A DNA stretch of 40,198 nt from a virus. The DNA lies in the IMG/VR virus record IMGVR_UViG_3300045988_096677, positions 1 through 40,198 of that record; one strand, given 5' to 3'. The notes beneath the pieces were generated by a model that was not told where the DNA came from, did not search any database, and saw only the letters and a program-made list of their open reading frames with translations. Shown one piece after another: positions 27,909 to 37,329 of this stretch. Position 1 is the first letter of the stretch. The number at the start of each line of letters is the position of its first letter. Made by a program: the position numbers and the translations under genes.

Positions 27909-28571
27909 ATGATGGCAAAAACCATATTAGATGTTTCCCGCTGGCAGGGCAGCATCGACTGGGACAAGGTCAAGGCAAGCGGCCTTGTCTCCGGTGTGAT
28001 GCTCAAGACGGTGTCCACCAACCGCAAGTTGAGCAAGCGCAAGGACGGGCTGTACATTGACCCGACCTTTGAGCGCAACTATGCCGAGTGCAAGCGGCTG
28101 GGGATCCCGGTGGGCGTGTACTACTACACCTACGCCGTCTCGCATACCAGTGCCGATGCAGAGCTTGCCCTGCTCAAGACTGCGCTGACCGGCAAGACTT
28201 TTGAGCTGCCGATCTGCGTGGATGTGGAGGACAACAAGCTCTGCAAGCTTGGCAAGCAGGCGTTGACCGACCTGACCGCGTATGCGCTGGCGACCATCGA
28301 GCAGTGGGGCTTCTATGCCCTGCTCTATACCGGGCTTAATTTCGGTGAGACCCGGCTGTATATGAGCGGTGCAGCGTTGCGCAAGTACGACGTATGGCTG
28401 GCCGCCTACCGTGCCAACAAGCCCGCCACGTCGTGGGCTTACGGGATGTGGCAGTACACCAGCACCGCCAGCGTGCCGGGCATCACGGGCAACGTGGACT
28501 TATCGCACGCTTACAAGGACTACGCCGCGATCATCGCGAAAAAGGGGCTGGACAGGCTCCTGGAGGTATAA
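27909..28571 (+). CDS. GH25 muramidase endolysin
   Basis: ILDVSRWQGSIDWDKVKASG...GVYYYTYA...DVE...WLAAY are GH25 lysozyme signatures. Confidence 0.9.
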   Translation: MMAKTILDVSRWQGSIDWDKVKASGLVSGVMLKTVSTNRKLSKRKDGLYIDPTFERNYAECKRLGIPVGVYYYTYAVSHTSADAELALLKTALTGKTFELPICVDVEDNKLCKLGKQALTDLTAYALATIEQWGFYALLYTGLNFGETRLYMSGAALRKYDVWLAAYRANKPATSWAYGMWQYTSTASVPGITGNVDLSHAYKDYAAIIAKKGLDRLLEV

Positions 28572-29842: not shown

Positions 29843-29885
29843 AGCCCCGAGGTTTCGCGTTTGCGATTCCCCGGGGCTTTTTTTA
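29843..29885. terminator. Bidirectional terminator between convergent genes
   Basis: agccccg(29843-29849)...cggggct(29872-29878), flanked by aaaa on the left and tttttattttt on the right. Confidence 0.7.
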
Positions 29886-31094
29886 TTTTTTCACGCTCTT
29901 TTTTCTTTTTTTGCCTCGCGCGGCGTTGAACTCTTCGCTGTGCTCTGCCATATACTCCCGCTTGTGCTCCCGGACGGTTTCCGGCACGACAGTTTTCGCG
30001 CACTCCGGGCAATATTTTTGCAGCCCGCTCTGGACAATATACGGCTTGCCGCAGGCCTCGCAGATGTCCTCACTGCCGATTTTGCGCGGCTTGCGCTTCC
30101 GGCGTGCTGCAGCCTGCTCCCGCTCCACTTCCGGCTTGCACTGGGGGCAGTATTTCGAGCGTGGATACCCCTCGAATTCTGCCCCGCAACGGGCGCACAC
30201 CCGCGGCCGCAGAACGCTGGACGACTTCACGGCCTTTGCGCAATCTTCGCACATATAGGAGTATTTGCTTTTCGTCCAATACAGCTTTCCGCACTGGGAG
30301 CATTTGCGCAACGCTGGCTTTTTGAGCTTCCCCTTATTTTTTCTCGCACTCTCTTCCCTGTTTTTCTCGGCTAGGGCTTCAAGATCTCTCTGGACGGCGT
30401 CTTCCCAGCCGTCATATTGTGCAAGGTACGGCCTCAATATGATGTCGTTGGCCAATCCTCTAACCTTAGCCGCTTCCTCGAGTGTGTCGAAGCGACCAAG
30501 GCAGATGGAGACCTTCCGAAACATGATTCTCGCTATGTATTTTTTTACGCGCTTGTTATAGGTGACTCCATTGACTCCCGTCGTGGAATTTTTATTGGTC
30601 TTTCCTTCCAACCGCATTTTTGCGTTCAAAAGGCTTGAGCCATCCATAATAACATGCTTATCCAACGTTGCAATCGCGCGGCTTTTTTTTCTCGAACACT
30701 TGTCGCAGGAAGTCGTTTTGAAAATCCGACGAAGATTAAGGTCGTAGTATTCTCCGCATTCAGGACATTTGACATGACCCCAAGTTTCTGTATAATAACT
30801 TTTTCGGTTTGGAAATTCCCTCAAGTATACACGCTCGACGAAAAAGCCGTTGACAGTTTTCCCTTCGTATTGTTGTTTTTTCCTTTCGAGCATATTTGAG
30901 GTTACATTTTTGACCCTTTTTTTTCGCGCACAATCTACGCAACAGAAACACTCTTTCGGGCTTCGCAGACTACCATTTTGCACATCCTGTATTTTTCCGC
31001 AGGAACAACGACATTTCGTATACCCATTCTTTTCCGAAGAGCCTATTACCGTCCACTCTTTGTATTTTTTCCCTATTACAATTTTTTCTGCCAT
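29883..31094 (-). CDS. AP2-domain DNA-binding protein with multiple CxxC zinc ribbons (403 aa)
   Basis: The start at 31094 (MAEKIV...) is preferred because the 31133 start would overlap the upstream terminator hairpin. AP2 core GVNGVTYNKRVKKYIARIMFRKVSICLGRFDTLEEAAKVR. At least three C-terminal ribbons: CSQCG..CEDC, CARCG..CPQC, CEACG..CPEC. Confidence 0.75.
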   Translation of the reverse strand: MAEKIVIGKKYKEWTVIGSSEKNGYTKCRCSCGKIQDVQNGSLRSPKECFCCVDCARKKRVKNVTSNMLERKKQQYEGKTVNGFFVERVYLREFPNRKSYYTETWGHVKCPECGEYYDLNLRRIFKTTSCDKCSRKKSRAIATLDKHVIMDGSSLLNAKMRLEGKTNKNSTTGVNGVTYNKRVKKYIARIMFRKVSICLGRFDTLEEAAKVRGLANDIILRPYLAQYDGWEDAVQRDLEALAEKNREESARKNKGKLKKPALRKCSQCGKLYWTKSKYSYMCEDCAKAVKSSSVLRPRVCARCGAEFEGYPRSKYCPQCKPEVEREQAAARRKRKPRKIGSEDICEACGKPYIVQSGLQKYCPECAKTVVPETVREHKREYMAEHSEEFNAARGKKRKKSVKK

Positions 31095-31115: not shown

Positions 31116-31143
31116 ACCCCGGGGCTCATACAAGCCTCGGGGT
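31116..31143 (-). terminator. Hairpin ACCCCGGGGC/GCCTCGGGGT downstream of the 74-aa gene
   Basis: 10-bp stem with one G-T pair. The minus-strand downstream sequence is tattttgaaag. Confidence 0.5.
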
Positions 31144-31157
31144 CTTATTGGTATCTC

Positions 31158-31382
31158 TTATTCTGCGTACTCGCCCCAGCCGCTCAGGGTGCAGGTGTTG
31201 CCGTTGCCGTCTTCCCAGCCTGCGGTGATGGGATCTTTGCCAGCGTCCAGATCGCGCTTGCACAGCTCCATATCGTCGTCATCTGCGGGGTAGATGTAAC
31301 CAAGAACCTTGTCGTCCTTGACGACCTTCAGCGCGTCACAGTTGATCTCGTAGACCTCAATACCATTTTCAAAGCTCCACAT
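31158..31382 (-). CDS. Small strongly acidic protein (74 aa), unknown function
   Basis: SD ggaggt in the duplicated 5'UTR. By my count about 18 D/E versus 6 K/R, including a DDDD run. Confidence 0.65.
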   Translation of the reverse strand: MWSFENGIEVYEINCDALKVVKDDKVLGYIYPADDDDMELCKRDLDAGKDPITAGWEDGNGNTCTLSGWGEYAE

Positions 31383-31510
31383 GATTGTTACCTCCGATTG
31401 TTTTATGTTGTTGTGTTGTTTCCCTTGCTGTGATTATAGTATAGCACAAATACCGTATTTCGTCAAGTGCTTTTTGCAAAAAAACGGTGTTTTTGCAAAA
31501 AATTATTTCA
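31380..31510 (-). repeat. Copy B of a ~130-bp duplicated promoter/5'UTR cassette (paralogue at 32252-32386)
   Basis: By-eye alignment gives about 10 mismatches over ~130 bp. It covers the start codon, SD, a CA-rich UTR, -10, -35 and two TTTTTGCAAAAA palindromes (31471-31482 and 31490-31501). Confidence 0.85.
31438..31466 (-). promoter_or_regulatory. Near-consensus sigma-70 promoter TTGACG-N17-TGcTATACT (copy B)
   Basis: Minus strand: -35 at 31461-31466, 17-nt spacer, -10 at 31438-31443 with an upstream TG. Confidence 0.65.
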
Positions 31511-31937
31511 AAAATTCCCGCAACGCTTCCAAAACCATGTCGTTTCGGCTGCGGTGTTCGACTTCCATCCTTGCGGTCAGCCGCTCTGCCAACTTTTCGG
31601 GCAGATAGATCGTAACCTTGATGTTTTGCCCTCCATCGCTGCCGCCAAAGAGCAGATCGTACTGGTCGCCGTCGAGCCGTTCCTCGACCCATTTCCGGGC
31701 GCGTTCCTCGCTGATCGGCTTGATCTTCTCACCACCAGCCCATTCGTTCTGGCCGATCTGCTCATTGTACCGGCTGGCAGCTCCACCGCAGCAGTACAGG
31801 AAATAGTTGCCAGCCTTGGTGCGGTACAGCTCTTCTTCCTCGTGATACAGCCCACGGGAGTCTCCATCGGACTCCCACCGGCCAAGCTTTTTGGCCGTCT
31901 CGGTGTTGTACCGCATCCCGTTGATAACTTTCTTCAT
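31503..31937 (-). CDS. Protein with a C-terminal ribbon-helix-helix (CopG-like) domain (144 aa)
   Basis: C-terminal NIKVTIYLPEKLAERLTARMEVEHRSRNDMVLEALREFL fits the RHH beta-alpha-alpha pattern. The N-terminal domain is unknown. Confidence 0.65.
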   Translation of the reverse strand: MKKVINGMRYNTETAKKLGRWESDGDSRGLYHEEEELYRTKAGNYFLYCCGGAASRYNEQIGQNEWAGGEKIKPISEERARKWVEERLDGDQYDLLFGGSDGGQNIKVTIYLPEKLAERLTARMEVEHRSRNDMVLEALREFLK

Positions 31938-31960
31938 TGCGATTTCCTCCGTTTAATAAT

Positions 31961-31990
31961 AGCCCCGGGGTTCATACGAGCCTCGGGGCT
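31961..31990 (-). terminator. Hairpin AGCCCCGGGG/CCTCGGGGCT downstream of the 82-aa gene
   Basis: Same arm and loop family as 31116-31143 (ccccggggYtcatacRagcctcgggg). Confidence 0.45.
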
Positions 31991-32005
31991 GTGTAAAGTC
32001 CTGTG

Positions 32006-32254
32006 TTATGCGACCACCTTGGCGATAGCGTCCGCGATCTCCTGCATGGTCATGTGGCGGCGGGTGTTTGCCACGGTGACGATAGACTCGCTGTGGTACT
32101 CCGTCCAATCGTTGTCGCTCAGCTGGTAGACAGCCATCACTTCGCCGTCGGCGCGGTCGTAGCTGATCTGCACATAACCACGGTTGCAGTTGCAGGTCTC
32201 GCCGCTTGCCTTCTTCAGACCGTTCATATTCATACCGTACTTATTGACCTTCAT
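32006..32254 (-). CDS. Small protein (82 aa), unknown function
   Basis: Driven by copy A of the duplicated promoter/UTR, with SD ggaggc. No resemblance to the 74-aa cargo of copy B. Confidence 0.65.
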   Translation of the reverse strand: MKVNKYGMNMNGLKKASGETCNCNRGYVQISYDRADGEVMAVYQLSDNDWTEYHSESIVTVANTRRHMTMQEIADAIAKVVA

Positions 32255-32386
32255 AATTGTTGCCTCCGATTGTTTTGTGTTGTTGTTTTGCTTCCCTTGC
32301 TGTGACTATAGTATAGCACAAATACCGTATTTCGTCAAGCGTTTTTTTGCAAAAAAGCGGTGTTTTTGTAAAAAATTATTCTCAAC
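32252..32386 (-). repeat. Copy A of the duplicated promoter/5'UTR cassette
   Basis: See 31380-31510. The palindromes here read ttttttgcaaaaaa and tttttgtaaaaa. Confidence 0.85.
32310..32338 (-). promoter_or_regulatory. Near-consensus sigma-70 promoter TTGACG-N17-TGcTATACT (copy A)
   Basis: Minus strand: -35 at 32333-32338 and -10 at 32310-32315. Confidence 0.65.
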
Positions 32387-32464
32387 TTTGGCCGTCGTTG
32401 TACCATCGTTGTCTCTTGCTTCCACGGCGAGTGGTAGGATGGGGGTGCAAGGAGGGCGATTGAC

Positions 32465-33007
32465 ATGGCTCAGTATAACAACGGCTATTCTGCTCCTGCC
32501 GGTGCCGGAGCGTACACCCAGCCCGGAGCGCAATACTCCGGCGGAATGGGTGCAGTAGGTGCAACACCGCCTCTTTCTTGCGGTTACGGAGCGGCCAACG
32601 TGCCCCGCACGATGGGCTACCAGCAAGCCGCCCCGCAAGAAGTGCCTGTCGGGTTGCTGGGGCGTCCGGTTTCCAGCCGCGAGGAATTCTTGGCGATCCC
32701 GTCCGATCTGTATGGCCGGGGCATCTATTGTCCGGATCTGCGCAACGGCGTAATCTACTATAAGCGGCTCAACCCAGAAACCGGAGAGTCGGACATTGGG
32801 GAGTACTACAGCCCGCAGGCATGGCAGGCAATGCAGCAGGCACAAGCTGCGCAGCAAGCCCAGAGGATGCAGGCTGCTGCACCTGTGCAGGATTACGTCC
32901 TCAAGGCAGACTATAACGAGCTTGTCCAGCGCGTCAACGAGCTGGACGAACGGTTGCAAAAGCCCACCAAGACCATCCCGGCGGGCAAGAAAGGAGAAGC
33001 AGTATGA
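32465..33007 (+). CDS. Cargo operon gene 1: protein with a G/A/Q/Y/P-rich N-terminus and Q/A-rich coiled C-terminus (180 aa)
   Basis: SD aaggaggg upstream. Track ORF. Confidence 0.7.
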   Translation: MAQYNNGYSAPAGAGAYTQPGAQYSGGMGAVGATPPLSCGYGAANVPRTMGYQQAAPQEVPVGLLGRPVSSREEFLAIPSDLYGRGIYCPDLRNGVIYYKRLNPETGESDIGEYYSPQAWQAMQQAQAAQQAQRMQAAAPVQDYVLKADYNELVQRVNELDERLQKPTKTIPAGKKGEAV

Positions 33008-33258
33008 CACAGTCACCGCTTGATATGCTGACTCACAGCCCGATCATGCAGCTGGCGAATCTTGCCCGTGTCGGCCAGAACCCCATGGCACTGATCCAGC
33101 AGCTGAGCGGACAGAGTGCCCCCATTATGCAGGGCTACAACCTGATACAGGGCAAGAGCGAGGCCCAGCTCCGAAATATGGCTCAGAATCTAGCCCGGGA
33201 GCGCGGCATAGATCTCAATCAATTGGCGTCGGCACTCAATCTGACGCTCCCGAAATAA
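33004..33258 (+). CDS. Cargo operon gene 2: small helical Q-rich protein (84 aa)
   Basis: ATGA-coupled to gene 1, with SD aaaggagaag. Confidence 0.65.
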   Translation: MTQSPLDMLTHSPIMQLANLARVGQNPMALIQQLSGQSAPIMQGYNLIQGKSEAQLRNMAQNLARERGIDLNQLASALNLTLPK

Positions 33259-33367
33259 CACAATACCCCCTCAGTTTTGCGGGTCTTGACGAAAACCGCC
33301 TGACAACGGCTTCGCCCGTCGCATCCGGCGACGGGATAGCAATATCGCAAAACTAAGGAGGCTTAGT

Positions 33368-34249
33368 ATGGACGATTTCGCAACCGGCTATCTTGCAGGG
33401 CAGGACGGCGGCAATAACAACAGCGGTGGCTTTTTCGGCAACGAGGGGCTGTGGGCGGTGATTATCCTTGCCATCATCTTTGGCTGGGGCAACTACGGTA
33501 ACGGGCGCAACGGCGGCGACAACGGAATGGCAAACTACATTCCGTATCTTGTGGGCACCGGAGCAAGCGGTCAGGGCGGCGCAGACACCCGCGCGGCACT
33601 GTCTGAGGGCTTCTACCAGCAGGACACCTCCCGCTCTCTGGCTGGCATCCAGAGCGGTATCTGCTCTCTGGGCTATGACCAGTTAGCGCAGATGAACGGC
33701 ATCAACGCCAACATTTCCAGCGGTTTCGCGGGCGTGAACAGTGCCATCTGTCAGCTGGGCTATCAGAACGCACAGCTGGTCAACGGCCTCGAGCGCAGTG
33801 TCGCCAACGGCGATAATGCGATCACGCTGGCTCTGATGCAGGAAGGCAACGCGCGGCAGGCTGGCCAGACGGCCATCCAGACCCAGATCGCAAGTTGCTG
33901 CTGCGACAACAAGCAGCTCATCGGCGACCTGCGCTACACCATCGCGCAGGAAGATTGTGCCACCCGGCAGGCCATTTCTGATACCGGACGCGCCATCATG
34001 GACAACTGCAACGCCAACTATCGCAGTCTGATGGACTATTTTGTGCAGGACAAGATCGCCAGCCTGACCGCGGAAAATCAGACGCTCAAGTTCGCGGCCT
34101 CCCAGCAGGCTCAGAACACCCTGCTGACCAATGCGATGGCTCAGCAGACCGACGTGCTGATGACTCGGCTCAACCCGCGCGCACAGCCTGCCTACGTTGT
34201 ACCCAATCCCAACGCGGCCACCAACTGCTGCGGGAATCCGTGCTACTAA
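33368..34249 (+). CDS. Cargo operon gene 3: membrane-anchored Gly/Asn-rich, Q-rich, Cys-rich protein (293 aa)
   Basis: SD taaggagg. TM segment LWAVIILAIIFGW flanked by GGNNNSGGFFGN and GNYGNGRNGGDNG. Internal duplicated motif S-x-IC-x-LGY-x3-Q-x2-NG. CCC cluster and C-terminal NCCGNPCY. Confidence 0.75.
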   Translation: MDDFATGYLAGQDGGNNNSGGFFGNEGLWAVIILAIIFGWGNYGNGRNGGDNGMANYIPYLVGTGASGQGGADTRAALSEGFYQQDTSRSLAGIQSGICSLGYDQLAQMNGINANISSGFAGVNSAICQLGYQNAQLVNGLERSVANGDNAITLALMQEGNARQAGQTAIQTQIASCCCDNKQLIGDLRYTIAQEDCATRQAISDTGRAIMDNCNANYRSLMDYFVQDKIASLTAENQTLKFAASQQAQNTLLTNAMAQQTDVLMTRLNPRAQPAYVVPNPNAATNCCGNPCY

Positions 34250-34337
34250 GGACAGTTTGACTCCCCGATAACACCGGGTGATTTATCGGGGCAGCGGCAG
34301 AATGCCGCTGCCCTTGATTGTTAAGGAGGACTATACT

Positions 34338-34715
34338 ATGGCTTGTGCAACAAGCTGCAAACTCTGCCGCCGGTTAGTCGTAAGCACGGCGGTCAATTAT
34401 GACAGCACCAATAACCAGCTCATCATCGCACTCCCGGCGGGCGCATACGCCAACGGCGAGAAATACTGCATCGTCGTGGCTCAGTCTATCCCGGAGTCTA
34501 CCACGATCAACGCCGCAGTCGTCATCACGGTGGGCGACGGCGCGACCCGCTACCCTTTGACGGACAACACCTGCGCACAGGCGACCGCTGAGTGCATCCG
34601 GACGCGGACACGTTACGCCACCCGCGTGGCAACGTCGGCCGCCGGCACGGGAACGTTCAAGTTTTTGGGCTGTTTTTGCCGCTCCCATGTGTCTGCTCCG
34701 GCAGCGATCTCGTAA
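34338..34715 (+). CDS. Cargo operon gene 4: Cys-rich beta-rich small protein (125 aa)
   Basis: SD taaggagga 7 nt upstream of ATG 34338. In frame with track ORF 34278..34715. MACATSCKLCRR at the N-terminus and LGCFCRSH near the C-terminus. Confidence 0.7.
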   Translation: MACATSCKLCRRLVVSTAVNYDSTNNQLIIALPAGAYANGEKYCIVVAQSIPESTTINAAVVITVGDGATRYPLTDNTCAQATAECIRTRTRYATRVATSAAGTGTFKFLGCFCRSHVSAPAAIS

Positions 34716-34728
34716 GGAGGTGTGATCT

Positions 34729-35373
34729 ATGAGCAAGCGTGACACGATCCGCATGATGATGCTGCGAGACCACAGCAACACCCCGAAATATGACCCGGCC
34801 GAAGCTGAGCGCGAGCGCAAAGAGCGTGATCTCGAGCGTCGCCTGCGTCGGCTGGAAGAGGGAGAGCGAGAACCTCGCCGCTCGTGGGAGATCCGGGAAA
34901 ACAACCGGTACATTGACCCCGACCATACTCCCCGCTATCCGGACGCGGACAACTACGACCGCCGTATGCCTCGCATCGGCTTTTCACAGGGAGACGACTG
35001 GGAACGCACCCGCGGCCAGTATGAGCACGGTGGCGCGGCCAGCCGGACGGTCAAAATGCCCCGCCAGCACTTGACACACGATGAGGCCAAGGAGTGGACG
35101 GAGCACATGGCCAATGCCGACGGCACCACCGGCGCACATTGGCCGTATGAGCAGGCCGTCCAGCTTATGACTCAGCGCGGCCTTGACTGCAACAAGGACG
35201 ATTTTTGGGCGGTGCTCAACATGATGTACAGCGATTATAGCAAGGTCGCCAAGTCGTACAGCGTGGATAACCCCAATTTTTACGCCGACATGACCGCCGC
35301 GTTTTTGCGCGACCAAGACGCAGTTGACGGCAAGGCGGCTGTCTATTGGGAGTGCATCGCGGACGCAGACTGA
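34729..35373 (+). CDS. Cargo operon gene 5: protein with a highly charged R/E-rich N-terminal half and a conserved-looking C-terminal domain (214 aa)
   Basis: SD taaggaggtg. C-terminal NADGTTGAHWPYEQ...NMMYSDYSKVAK...FYADM...FLRDQDA. Confidence 0.7.
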   Translation: MSKRDTIRMMMLRDHSNTPKYDPAEAERERKERDLERRLRRLEEGEREPRRSWEIRENNRYIDPDHTPRYPDADNYDRRMPRIGFSQGDDWERTRGQYEHGGAASRTVKMPRQHLTHDEAKEWTEHMANADGTTGAHWPYEQAVQLMTQRGLDCNKDDFWAVLNMMYSDYSKVAKSYSVDNPNFYADMTAAFLRDQDAVDGKAAVYWECIADAD

Positions 35374-35588: not shown

Positions 35589-36740
35589 CTACTTTTCGCG
35601 TTTGGGGTCATTCTCGGCATAGTAAGCAATCATCTTTTGGGTGGCGTCCTTGAGCTTACGCTCCCGGATGTGGGTGTAGATCTTGTAGGTTGTCGCTATG
35701 TCGGAGTGACCCATAATCTTTTTGGCCTCTAACACGCCCACACCGGCGTCGTAGAGGTCAGACGCGAACGAGTGCCGGAATTGGTGCGCGGTAACGGTCG
35801 GCTCCATGACCGGCGGAAGAGGATTGACGGCTGCTTTTGCGCCACGCCGCTTGTCTCTGTATCGGGTCTTGCTCTCACTTGGGCGCACAAGCCCCAGTGA
35901 CGTGCAGTATTGGAGCCACCGGCTGTGGTATTCGGCATCTGTCAAGGGTCTTGTCAGCCCACCGATGATATAGACTTTCGGCGCGGCTTTCAGCGGCTCG
36001 AGCAGCTGCTTGAGGTGTGGCAGCAGGGGGATGGTGCGGACTCCGTTGGATGTTTTGGGCGTCTGTATCCGCGTTCCGCCGCCAGCCCAAGAAACATTCT
36101 TAGTTATGTATATTTTGTCGGCCTGAAAGTCGATGTCATCCCATTGCAGGGCGATGAGCTCACCCAAGCGGCAACCGGTGTACATGAGCATCCATGCGCA
36201 CAGCCCAAAGCCTTCCGGGTGCGCACGGAACACCGCAAGCTCTCTGTCGGTGGGCGGCTCACGCTCCACGGCGGGTTTCCCGGCGGGTGCGGAAACATCC
36301 TGCATCGGGTTATAAGAGGATCCGCTGTCCAGCCGCCAGAATTTCAGGATTCCCCGCAGCACGCTCATTCCGTTGCGGATGGTGCTGGTCGAAAGCCCCT
36401 CATCCTTGAGACGCTGACCAAAATTGGCGACCATTGCGGGCGTTATTTCGTCCATGTGCTTCCCCGCAAAGTACGCCACGCACCGCTCATAATTGGACTT
36501 GTAGGTACTATCTGTGCCCGGCTTGATGCGCCCCAGAAGCTTCTCCCAATATTTCGCGGAAACGGTCTCGAAAAGATCCGCAGCTGCCTGCTCTTCCTGC
36601 TTCTGCCGCAGAGCCTCAATATATTTCCCCTCCGCCTCGGTCTTGGTGTGGCCATAGAAGACCTTATATTTGCCGTCGGGCATCTTGCGCTTGCATTGAT
36701 ACAGGCCGTCAGCGCGCTGGCCTTTTTTGGGTCTTGGCAT
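35589..36740 (-). CDS. int: Tyrosine recombinase / phage integrase (383 aa)
   Basis: Start at 36740 (MPRPKKGQRADGLYQCK...) is preferred. C-terminal catalytic signatures HQFRHSFAS and MGHSDIATTYKIYTH. N-terminal SAM-like domain. Confidence 0.9.
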   Translation of the reverse strand: MPRPKKGQRADGLYQCKRKMPDGKYKVFYGHTKTEAEGKYIEALRQKQEEQAAADLFETVSAKYWEKLLGRIKPGTDSTYKSNYERCVAYFAGKHMDEITPAMVANFGQRLKDEGLSTSTIRNGMSVLRGILKFWRLDSGSSYNPMQDVSAPAGKPAVEREPPTDRELAVFRAHPEGFGLCAWMLMYTGCRLGELIALQWDDIDFQADKIYITKNVSWAGGGTRIQTPKTSNGVRTIPLLPHLKQLLEPLKAAPKVYIIGGLTRPLTDAEYHSRWLQYCTSLGLVRPSESKTRYRDKRRGAKAAVNPLPPVMEPTVTAHQFRHSFASDLYDAGVGVLEAKKIMGHSDIATTYKIYTHIRERKLKDATQKMIAYYAENDPKREK

Positions 36741-37329
36741 TTTCCACGTCCTCCTTGTTGATGGAGTAGCTGCCCGCCTGCTTGCCAATTGCGGCCTCTC
36801 CGCAGTCTCGAGCCTGATACAGGATGTCCATGATGGGATGCACGCCGTTGATATCGGGGTCGATGTGCATCATCTGGCACAGCTCGTAATACTTGATGAC
36901 CATATTGACGATCACGACGCGATCCCGGAGCAGGGTGTGCAGGTTGGCCAGCATCTCGGTGATGACGCCCACCGGATCGGAGCCGTGGTCGCCGTAATAC
37001 AGGTAGCACCACGCGTCCACCTCGTAGGGTGACATTTCGTCCACGAGTTTATGCAGGACCTGCCGTTTTTCGGCGTCGGTCGGGCTGTCGTTCAGCCGCT
37101 CGAGCAGCCCGGGGTGAACGCAAGCGTCTGTATAACGTTTTGCGGCCACGCCACAGCAGACGCACCACTTGATAAGATCATCCAGCGTCGTTGACACGAG
37201 CCCTTGCTCCCGGTTGGCAATGGCCGTCTTACTAACTCCCATCTTTCGGGCAAGCCGCTCTTGGCTGAGGCCGCTTTTTGCGCGGGCAATTGCCAACACT
37301 TCCGCTACCCGACGTCTGTATTCATCCAT
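36709..37329 (-). CDS. XRE-family HTH regulator with a ~140-aa C-terminal domain (206 aa)
   Basis: AKSGLSQERLARKMGVSKTAIANREQG is HTH_3-like. Overlaps the int start. Divergent from the small + operon at 37468. Confidence 0.7.
   Translation of the reverse strand: MDEYRRRVAEVLAIARAKSGLSQERLARKMGVSKTAIANREQGLVSTTLDDLIKWCVCCGVAAKRYTDACVHPGLLERLNDSPTDAEKRQVLHKLVDEMSPYEVDAWCYLYYGDHGSDPVGVITEMLANLHTLLRDRVVIVNMVIKYYELCQMMHIDPDINGVHPIMDILYQARDCGEAAIGKQAGSYSINKEDVENAKTQKRPAR

Follow-up and report, generated by a model that had tools for sequence, protein, structure and literature searches.

In T4-type phages, small genes of unknown function in a hyperplastic genome region are flanked by regulatory PeSL cassettes, composite elements of ~100 nt that combine an A/T-rich region, a strong sigma-70-type promoter, a Shine-Dalgarno (SD) sequence and GC-rich stem-loops; from genome to genome the flanked gene can be there, missing or exchanged for another, with one chimeric cassette remaining (Arbiol et al. 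2010, PMC2839356; Comeau et al. 2014, PMC4122927). In anti-CRISPR (acr)-aca loci, small accessory genes under a strong promoter adjoin the gene of a small DNA-binding autoregulator; Aca14 is described as a ribbon-helix-helix (RHH) protein that represses both its own and a neighboring operon through the same AT-rich inverted repeat (bioRxiv 10.64898/2026.07.27.740549). Fragments of CRISPR machinery can also be viral anti-CRISPRs (Acrs), as proven in Listeria phages for the Cas5 homologue AcrIB3 and the Cas8b C-terminal fragment AcrIB4 (bioRxiv 10.1101/2023.06.24.545427), and in archaeal viruses anti-defence genes can be recognized by the conserved early regulatory sequences in front of them (PMC11065993). 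Here, we describe a duplicated promoter cassette in IMG/VR virus record IMGVR_UViG_3300045988_096677 (positions 1 to 40,198; this whole stretch of 40,198 nt is referred to as the window), an essentially complete ~40-kb temperate siphophage of Clostridia-type Firmicutes from the human gut. Its two copies, P1 and P2, precede unrelated genes for small proteins of 74 and 82 aa (c74 and c82), and a gene for a 144-aa RHH protein lies between them. We are fairly confident that the module is a pair of regulatory cassettes, PeSL-like or moron-like in kind, and the Acr/Aca-like locus that the original prediction saw here is plausible.

All features of the module are on the minus strand and are numbered by their position in the window. 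Read 5' to 3', they follow in the order P2, c82, hairpin, 144-aa gene, P1, c74, hairpin and a gene for a 403-aa protein (Table 1). P1 and P2 are direct copies of ~135 nt each, found where the original prediction had placed them; 121 of 136 columns are identical in a gapped alignment (12 mismatches and 3 gap columns), and an ungapped repeat search returned the pair as 137 nt at 82%. A 32-mer core, TTGACGAAATACGGTATTTGTGCTATACTATA, is the same in both copies and absent elsewhere in the window (chance expectation 0.00). The A/T palindrome TTTTTGCAAAAA has four sites in 40 kb at one mismatch or fewer (expected 0.13), of which TTTTTGTAAAAA is one, and all four fall within the cassettes. Each copy contains the four parts that had been read from the letters: the palindromes, a near-consensus promoter (TTGACG-N17-TGcTATACT; score 10/12 in the promoter scan, with TG extension and 17-nt spacer), a CA-rich leader and a GGAGG SD. 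Folding energies of 0 and -0.4 kcal/mol mark the 49-nt leaders as unstructured, and an Rfam search found no RNA family in or around them. The promoter suits the host housekeeping sigma factor and is predicted to be active. Behind each cargo gene stands a GC-rich hairpin, and the two hairpins belong to one family, as had been proposed (86% identity over 37 nt). The c82 hairpin is probably an attenuator or partial terminator before the RHH gene; the c74 hairpin resembles an intrinsic terminator directly before the gene of the 403-aa zinc-ribbon/AP2 protein. A gene for a DNA-binding protein begins ~20 nt past each hairpin. The GC content of the module is 50% vs 55% for the window.

The original prediction had asked whether a search across phages would find the cassette with other cargos; the layout recurs and the cargos vary. 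Exact and degenerate cassette patterns gave 0 matches in IMG/VR, and the lineage was found in metagenome contigs only (related contigs and loci carry L numbers below). In L009, whose RHH protein is 63% identical to that of the window, a separate 116-nt cassette is duplicated (88% between copies) in front of genes for 125-aa and 112-aa proteins that are unrelated to c82 and c74. L009-like loci keep a fixed order of cassette, variable cargo, zinc-ribbon protein, RHH protein, cassette and acidic protein. Their first cargo comes from three unrelated families (105, 122, and 125-139 aa), at times accompanied by a 99-aa gene; the zinc-ribbon protein measures 164-490 aa, and the acidic protein behind the last cassette has 89 or 112 aa and a pI of 4.1. 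When metagenome contigs were scanned with the extended -10/start-site motif TGYGCTATAMTWWARTCACRGYAAGG, 35 loci were recovered (L027-L061), and in 11 of these a second copy lies 1.3-2.4 kb from the first. At least 10 unrelated small cargo families, many of them acidic (pI about 4.1), stand behind the cassette across loci, and a Pfam search with ten cargo families other than c74 and c82 identified no family. Promoters in ~14 contexts that otherwise differ, all in gut phage contigs, share the first ~10 transcribed nt, TCAC(A/G)G(C/T)AAGG (the scan required this motif); the sequence could be a 5' SD-like mRNA stabilizer, a +1 operator, or an initial-transcribed-sequence effect. In L057 (2103-3200), the acidic 89-aa cargo open reading frame (ORF) continues into ROK-kinase-like sequence (365 aa in total); either a junction of prophage and host or a chimeric assembly could account for this. 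Two apparent findings were rejected: stand-alone 50-aa RHH proteins upstream of single cassettes proved to be region-boundary artefacts, the full 144-aa gene being present, and ORFs of 143-145 aa behind c74 homologues in IMG/VR loci are low-complexity non-genes.

The cassette copies within a genome are 99% identical in L004 vs 89% in the window, and across genomes the first copies do not group apart from the second copies, which together fit ongoing exchange between copies. As assembled, L006 has a single chimeric cassette in which the upstream flank of P2 is joined to c74 (L006 2636-2845; sample ERZ4567976), with the junction inside an identical tract; the intervening 870 nt, comprising c82 and the RHH gene, are missing. 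L004 vs L006 parallels RB49 ORF192 vs phi1 among the PeSL cassettes. Like PeSL elements, the cassettes are repeated, combine an A/T-rich region, a sigma-70-type promoter, an SD sequence and a GC-rich stem-loop, and flank small genes in a variable region, here the stretch that leads from the lysis genes to the integrase end of the prophage. They differ in host (a temperate Firmicutes siphophage rather than a lytic T4-like myovirus) and in number (two copies vs about 50 per genome). In PeSL cassettes the stem-loop is fused upstream of the promoter, whereas here it lies behind the cargo with a regulator gene before the next promoter, and the conserved RHH gene wedged between the copies has no PeSL counterpart; in our case, recombination between the copies is predicted from sequence. 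The module also resembles lambdoid morons, autonomous promoter-gene-terminator units between core modules, and, as with the regulatory sequences of archaeal viruses, a common strong sequence usable as bait precedes many unrelated small genes. The setting, however, is a bacterial temperate phage, and the common sequence includes the first ~10 transcribed nucleotides (TCACRGYAAGG).

Taken together, these features suggest a mechanism in which host RNA polymerase would initiate at both cassettes, and the unstructured CA-rich leader and GGAGG would give high translation of the small proteins. The hairpins would halt most transcripts, and read-through would then yield less of the RHH and zinc-ribbon proteins than of the cargo. 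The RHH protein might then feed back on both promoters through their common sequence and repress them in the manner of an Aca, and the repeats could provide homology through which cargo is lost, gained or replaced, a role that PeSL cassettes have in T4-type phages. As a whole (cassettes, read-through, RHH feedback, exchange, and counter-defence cargo), this is the best explanation that we can offer for the locus, and the balance tips slightly in its favor.

The 144-aa protein combines a beta-rich, conserved N-terminal domain (N-domain; residues ~1-98) with a C-terminal RHH domain (residues 108-143). The latter had been recognized from the translation and belongs to RHH_1/CopG (Pfam RHH_1, 27.6 bits vs a cut-off of 20.5); in the AF2 model, helices 114-127 and 131-143 follow an extended segment (the model is of a monomer and so has no dimeric ribbon). 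The full model (pLDDT 83.7) returned no significant fold match in PDB. Many of its 87 homologues consist of the N-domain alone. This domain (MKKVI.G..YNTETA...) is well conserved, more so than the RHH domain, and is also found as ~100-aa stand-alone proteins in Clostridia mobile elements. Between c82 and the start of this gene lie 68 nt, and another 120 nt separate its end from the c74 start codon. As in acr-aca loci, a small DNA-binding regulator gene is adjacent to small candidate effector genes, an arrangement also found in the L009-like lineage. One RHH gene between two promoter copies matches the two-operon control described for Aca14 (Pasteurella multocida, WP_005725436.1), with which the 144-aa protein was compared by description only. 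In that description the Aca14 inverted repeat overlaps the -10 box, whereas the palindromes here lie upstream of the -35 box and in the spacer. With its extra N-domain of ~100 aa, the regulator is closer in concept to the dual-function Acr-regulator fusions AcrIIA1 and AcrIF25. Homologues of the 403-aa protein lie directly upstream of RHH homologues in L009 (54% identity) and L016 (40%), with overlapping stop and start codons in both. Zinc-ribbon and N-domain(-RHH) genes are adjacent in 7 of 45 distant genome loci, and the pairing of N-domain(-RHH) with multi-zinc-ribbon/AP2 proteins recurs in Clostridia phages and mobile elements (L009, L016, L070, L071, L074, L082, L088-L090). Because the pair is recurrent, we regard it as the conserved core of the module, with c74 and c82 as cargo. 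Family searches (Pfam, PHROGs, NCBIfam, and PADLOC) with c74, c82, the 144-aa protein and their neighbors returned only RHH_1, zinc ribbons and the AP2-like domain, and motif strings looked for in the literature gave no match.

The two cargo proteins are, as had been claimed, unrelated past the start codon, and the residue counts given for the acidic c74 are exact (Table 1). Both are conserved protein families, which does not fit their description as fast-evolving. The c74 family comprises 126 representative clusters at E ≤ 1e-3 (exhaustive HMMER search) that share the motif W.F.NGI.V...LG.IYP...D...C...LD.G.DPI..GWEDG.GN.C...GWG, and c82 has 39 homologues in which RHMTMQEIADAI is near-invariant. 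One 3090-aa protein (P0131) contains 40 matches to c74 residues 32-68. The AF2 model of c74 (pLDDT 90.2) has three strands of at least three residues, one helix and a long C-terminal loop; Foldseek found nothing significant for it in PDB (best E 0.6) and, in BFVD, gut-phage homologues but no characterized protein. Sequence searches of Pfam, PHROGs, PADLOC, NCBIfam, and PDB gave no match for c74 and nothing significant for c82; searches of PDB by single sequence and by profile likewise gave no significant match for either or for the 144-aa protein, and c74 had no tblastn match among GenBank phages. A FlgK_2nd match on one c82 homologue was rejected, being barely above the cut-off, missing from the other members tested and biologically senseless. 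The net charge of c74 is strongly negative. No sequence or fold similarity of c74 to a known DNA mimic (Ocr, ArdA, AcrIIA4-like proteins and others) was found (Pfam; Foldseek on the c74 model against PDB).

Evidence pointing to counter-defence comes from the neighbors of the c74 family, which has an RHH gene beside it in three lineages, each time a different one, encoding the 144-aa protein of the window, a 59-aa Arc-like protein (L020) and a 44-aa NikA-like protein (L107). In L107 the c74 homologue is followed by a solo N-terminal Cas8c/Csd1 fragment (PF09709, E 3.5e-19) and then by the NikA-like RHH gene, and in both L107 and L108 the c74-homologue and Cas8c-fragment genes overlap. In IMG/VR phages L114-L116, a Cas8c fragment (E 5.2e-16) lies 49 nt downstream of the c74 homologue. 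The fragments of L107 and L114 are 41% identical, with lengths of 218 or 258 aa; the pairing is found in two diverged phage groups. Cas8c is the large subunit of type I-C Cascade, and by analogy with AcrIB3 and AcrIB4 these solo large-subunit fragments in small accessory operons are candidate Cas-derived anti-CRISPRs against type I-C. Unlike AcrIB4, they correspond to the N-terminal part of Cas8c rather than the C-terminal part of Cas8b and are found in relatives, not in the window; c74 itself has no Cas homology. Type I-C CRISPR-Cas is the system that c74 is a candidate to inhibit. Counter-defence is the cargo function that we consider likeliest, though we put the chance that one or more of the cargo genes act in this way somewhat below even. 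Two contigs recovered by the motif scan, L037 (7722-9647; OLIR01000347.1) and L053 (52-2093; ULWP01064410.1), are CRISPR arrays with 25 and 31 exact I-C-like 33-nt repeats and with spacers that match the promoter cassette core; the repeat GTCGCCCTCCTCGCGGAGGGCGTGGATAGAAAT offers a handle for host searches. Spacers 6, 7, and 12 of L037 target one ~2.5-kb L009-like module at its zinc-ribbon gene, RHH junction and cassette, a clustering reminiscent of primed acquisition. A 64-aa Acb2_Tad1_hairpin protein lies beside the holin near the c74 homologue of L020 (4759-4953, minus strand), and in L023 (614-1630) and L025 (647-1663; both minus strand) a 338-aa AcrVA2-like protein is encoded no more than ~2 kb from a c82 homologue.

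Whether the RHH protein regulates the cassette promoters is, on present evidence, evenly poised, and so is a rival reading of the TTTTTGCAAAAA palindromes, namely that they are not RHH operators but UP-element-like A/T tracts that are contacted by the alpha subunit of RNA polymerase and strengthen the promoter. Candidate regulator sites in the cassette are TTTTTGCAAAAA, AAATACGGTATTT, and TCACAGCAAGG. TTTTTGCAAAAA, twice per cassette, and AAATACGGTATTT, in the promoter spacer, are inverted repeats that may be regulator sites and are equally readable as UP-like tracts; under the UP reading, any RHH site would lie elsewhere, for example at the spacer palindrome AAATACGGTATTT. The E. coli UP consensus is reported as NNAAAWWTWTTTTNNAAAANNN at -59 to -38, from work by Estrem and colleagues in 1998. 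With the P1 -35 box set at -35 to -30, T7 falls at -53 to -47, followed by GC and by A5 at -44 to -40, and a comparison by hand, in register, with this E. coli consensus gave agreement at 12 of 15 specified positions for P1 and 10 of 15 for P2. A T-tract and an A-tract stand in register at -57 to -38 and may function as a UP element in the host. Otherwise unrelated promoters that share the -10 motif have TTTTTTCAAAAAA, TTTTGAAAAA, or TTTTTTGAAAAAA at an equal distance from the -35 box. The central bases of the tracts differ (GC, CA, GA), as expected for the 'nn' of the consensus, and the distal P2 palindrome is already imperfect. By a crude HMM, there is no RHH-like ORF in the eight loci with these promoters (L030, L031, L035, L039, L040, L046, L052, L059), which is weak evidence because the contigs are short. 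The operator reading draws on other observations. In L009-like and L010-like loci the proximal A-tract is replaced by T-rich sequence, and yet TTTT(G/A)CAAA and TTTTTTGC remain 19 bp apart in all three RHH-bearing lineages, a constant spacing that suggests a protein site rather than A/T richness of a general kind. Cassettes are still duplicated in L034, where both the A/T tracts and an RHH homologue are missing, and wherever the RHH gene is present its end closely precedes the second cassette (always ~60-100 nt upstream of the -35 box). L020, with its different Arc-like RHH protein, likewise has an inverted repeat in the promoter spacer. The RHH beta-strand residues, K-T-Y here vs Q-T-R in relatives, were compared with the upstream repeats, but such covariation could not settle the operator because A/T-rich repeats are too simple.

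The Acr/Aca-like interpretation is upheld in part, by the architecture, by its recurrence with other cargo and by the RHH and Cas8c neighbors of the c74 family. Several results count against it and against the wider account. No module protein has a sequence match to a characterized anti-defence, DNA-mimic or toxin family (Pfam, PHROGs, NCBIfam, PDB, and PADLOC), and sequence and profile comparisons found no homology to a validated Acr for c74, c82, or the 144-aa protein; by Foldseek, the models of c74 and the 144-aa protein matched no characterized fold. The window contains no Cas fragment, and none of the CRISPR spacers found matches it. The c74 domain is widespread, stand-alone as well as fused to other, unrelated domains, and many of its phage contexts have neither a regulator nor a Cas fragment nearby; its conserved motif, like that of c82, does not fit fast evolution. 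The palindromes fit a UP element no less well than an operator, and the 144-aa protein is not a simple Aca because it has a large conserved N-domain that also occurs alone and is repeatedly paired with zinc-ribbon/AP2 proteins. With regard to exchange and read-through, the L006 deletion is possibly an assembly artefact, since it rests on one ~3x contig and L007 and L008 end exactly at the cassette, a warning that the repeat disturbs assembly. The U-tails of both hairpins are weak, and a terminator scan called neither hairpin on the minus strand (the position of the c74 hairpin was called on the plus strand only). A stronger version of the proposal, a swappable counter-defence island in which c74, alone or with phage-borne Cas8c N-terminal decoys, is a new type I-C Acr family and the 144-aa protein is both effector and autoregulator, controlling both promoters, we consider distinctly unlikely. 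If it were true, the motif TGTGCTATAMT-WWAR-TCACRGYAAGG would be bait for dozens of anti-defence genes in gut phage metagenomes.

The lack of anti-defence homology would be natural if the cargo genes were ordinary morons, expressed by the prophage for lysogenic conversion or superinfection exclusion and acting on the host or on rival phages rather than against host immunity, with regulators unrelated to counter-defence. The interval between lysis and integrase genes is a classical moron site (in Firmicutes phages it also holds accessory genes), and the module occupies this prophage-end position with each gene as an autonomous promoter-plus-hairpin unit, beside a divergent operon that also differs between near-identical phages (L004 vs L005). 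Against this, c74 homologues repeatedly have solo Cas8c fragments and small RHH genes as neighbors, relatives carry anti-defence Pfam families in the equivalent regions, and the cargo proteins, read from sequence, are acidic, cytoplasmic and without membrane segments, unlike most exclusion proteins; we hold the moron explanation to be rather unlikely. In immI of phage P22, the RHH repressors Arc and Mnt control the strong promoter of an antirepressor. A secondary immunity region of this type, in which the small acidic protein binds a cI-like repressor or controls induction, would account for the pairing of an RHH protein with a very strong promoter away from the main immunity region, in a temperate phage whose genome encodes a cI-like HTH_3 protein, and the repressor logic proposed here resembles that of Arc, Mnt, Pant and Ant. 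However, what the module shares with Ant, Arc and Mnt goes no further than the generic RHH fold (Arc-like matches in PHROGs had E values of 0.03-0.05), and the cargo is variable and unrelated to Ant. Cargo is swapped for many unrelated proteins, which would be surprising for a dedicated antirepressor because it must fit its own repressor. This explanation is improbable. RHH domains are also common in antitoxins, and the 144-aa protein could be imagined as a HicB-like antitoxin and autorepressor (N-terminal binding domain plus C-terminal RHH) of a toxin-antitoxin or abortive-infection unit with a small protein as the toxin. The c74 model weakly resembles HicA-like toxins (Foldseek best E 0.05, TM 0.34-0.36) and matches the HicAB complex in PDB at E 3.3, and the 144-aa protein matches the antitoxin EndoAI at E 1.2 by single sequence and 0.72 by family profile, all non-significant. 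HicA toxins are basic with a catalytic His, while c74 is strongly acidic and has none. No recognizable toxin or antitoxin fold or profile of a type II (HicAB-like) system was found: the RHH model lacks a HicB-like fold match and PADLOC was empty. Gene order and separate promoters misfit a co-translated pair, and the possibly artefactual L006 has c74 without the 82-aa and RHH genes. A toxin-antitoxin unit is very improbable. The preferred account remains that of cassettes with exchangeable, possibly counter-defence cargo.

Table 1. Coordinates of the cassette module, its surroundings and related gene pairs (positions in the window unless a locus is named).
Feature	Coordinates	Strand	Remarks
Cassette P2	32255..32389	-	predicted to drive c82; ATG at 32254
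P2 distal A/T palindrome-like tract	32363-32374	-	one mismatch to TTTTTGCAAAAA
P2 proximal TTTTTGCAAAAA	32344-32355	-	
P2 -35 box TTGACG	32338-32333	-	
P2 extended -10 TGcTATACT, hexamer	32315-32310	-	
P2 predicted start site	near 32303	-	then CA-rich unstructured leader and GGAGG
c82	32006..32254	-	82 aa, pI 6.0; motif RHMTMQEIADAI
Hairpin behind c82	31963..31988	-	GC-rich, weak U-tail (CUAUUAUU); -18.2 kcal/mol
144-aa two-domain protein	31503..31937	-	own GGAGG, no promoter of its own
Cassette P1	31383..31516	-	predicted to drive c74; ATG at 31382
P1 TTTTTGCAAAAA, two occurrences	31490-31501 and 31471-31482	-	
P1 -35 box	31466-31461	-	palindrome AAATACGGTATTT inside spacer
P1 -10 hexamer	31443-31438	-	
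P1 predicted start site	near 31431	-	then 49-nt unstructured leader and GGAGG
Start-site motif TCAC(A/G)G(C/T)AAGG	31422-31432 and 32294-32304	-	
c74	31158..31382	-	74 aa, pI 4.05, no His; 18 D/E vs 6 K/R
Hairpin behind c74	31117..31142	-	GC-rich, then UUAUUUUG; -22 kcal/mol, z = -3.95
403-aa protein	29883..31094	-	basic, pI 9.7, 24 Cys; several zinc ribbons and AP2-like DNA-binding domain
Terminator-like site	29834-29809		past 403-aa gene; terminator scan
GH25 endolysin	27909-28571		left of module; then holin genes (holins seen in equivalent loci)
Tyrosine integrase	35589-36788		right of module
cI-like HTH_3 protein	36709-37329		right of module
c74-family and Cas8c-fragment pairs	L107 312-1335; L108 1069-1760; L114 2492-3550; L115, L116 equivalents		

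Near-identical contigs of 40.1-41.6 kb are present in gut metagenomes. By large terminase, the nearest named phage is Clostridium phage phiCs5676-1 (41% identity); the only GenBank phages matching the flanks are unannotated faecal 'Bacteriophage sp.' records, and a genome scan found no close prophage, which leaves the host placed no more closely than Clostridia-type Firmicutes. Beside P2, a divergent operon on the plus strand (32465-35373) encodes proteins of 180, 84, 293, 145, and 214 aa. DUF7841 is found in the 214-aa protein, and the interval 32386-32465 showed no clear sigma-70 promoter for the operon. In L005, in contrast to L004, the first genes of this operon are swapped (155, 111, 204, and 133 aa) and the minus-strand module is the same, which makes the divergent operon a second hypervariable unit. 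A perfect sigma-70 consensus (TTGACA-16-TATAAT, 12/12) lies at 30769-30796 on the plus strand, antisense within the zinc-ribbon/AP2 gene and directed toward c74; either coincidence or an antisense promoter could explain it. A related phage carries a reverse-transcriptase (RVT_1) gene near its tail/lysis region (L011 6864-7438), which may be part of a diversity-generating retroelement.

Were the cargo genes ordinary morons, the locus would amount to a tidy, unsurprising promoter duplication. If the preferred reading holds, the ~26-nt promoter/start-site motif and the conserved position of the RHH protein would provide a sequence handle on accessory, probably counter-defence genes carried by phages of gut Clostridia, hosts that are hard to culture and in whose phages Acr discovery by homology fails. 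The families of WEDG-motif c74, RHMTMQEIADAI-motif c82 and the MKKVI..YNTETA N-domain are nominated for testing together with the solo Cas8c N-terminal fragments, with type I-C as the first target. The idea behind PeSL cassettes, that regulatory cassettes double as recombination sites for gene shuffling, would then extend to temperate phages of Firmicutes.

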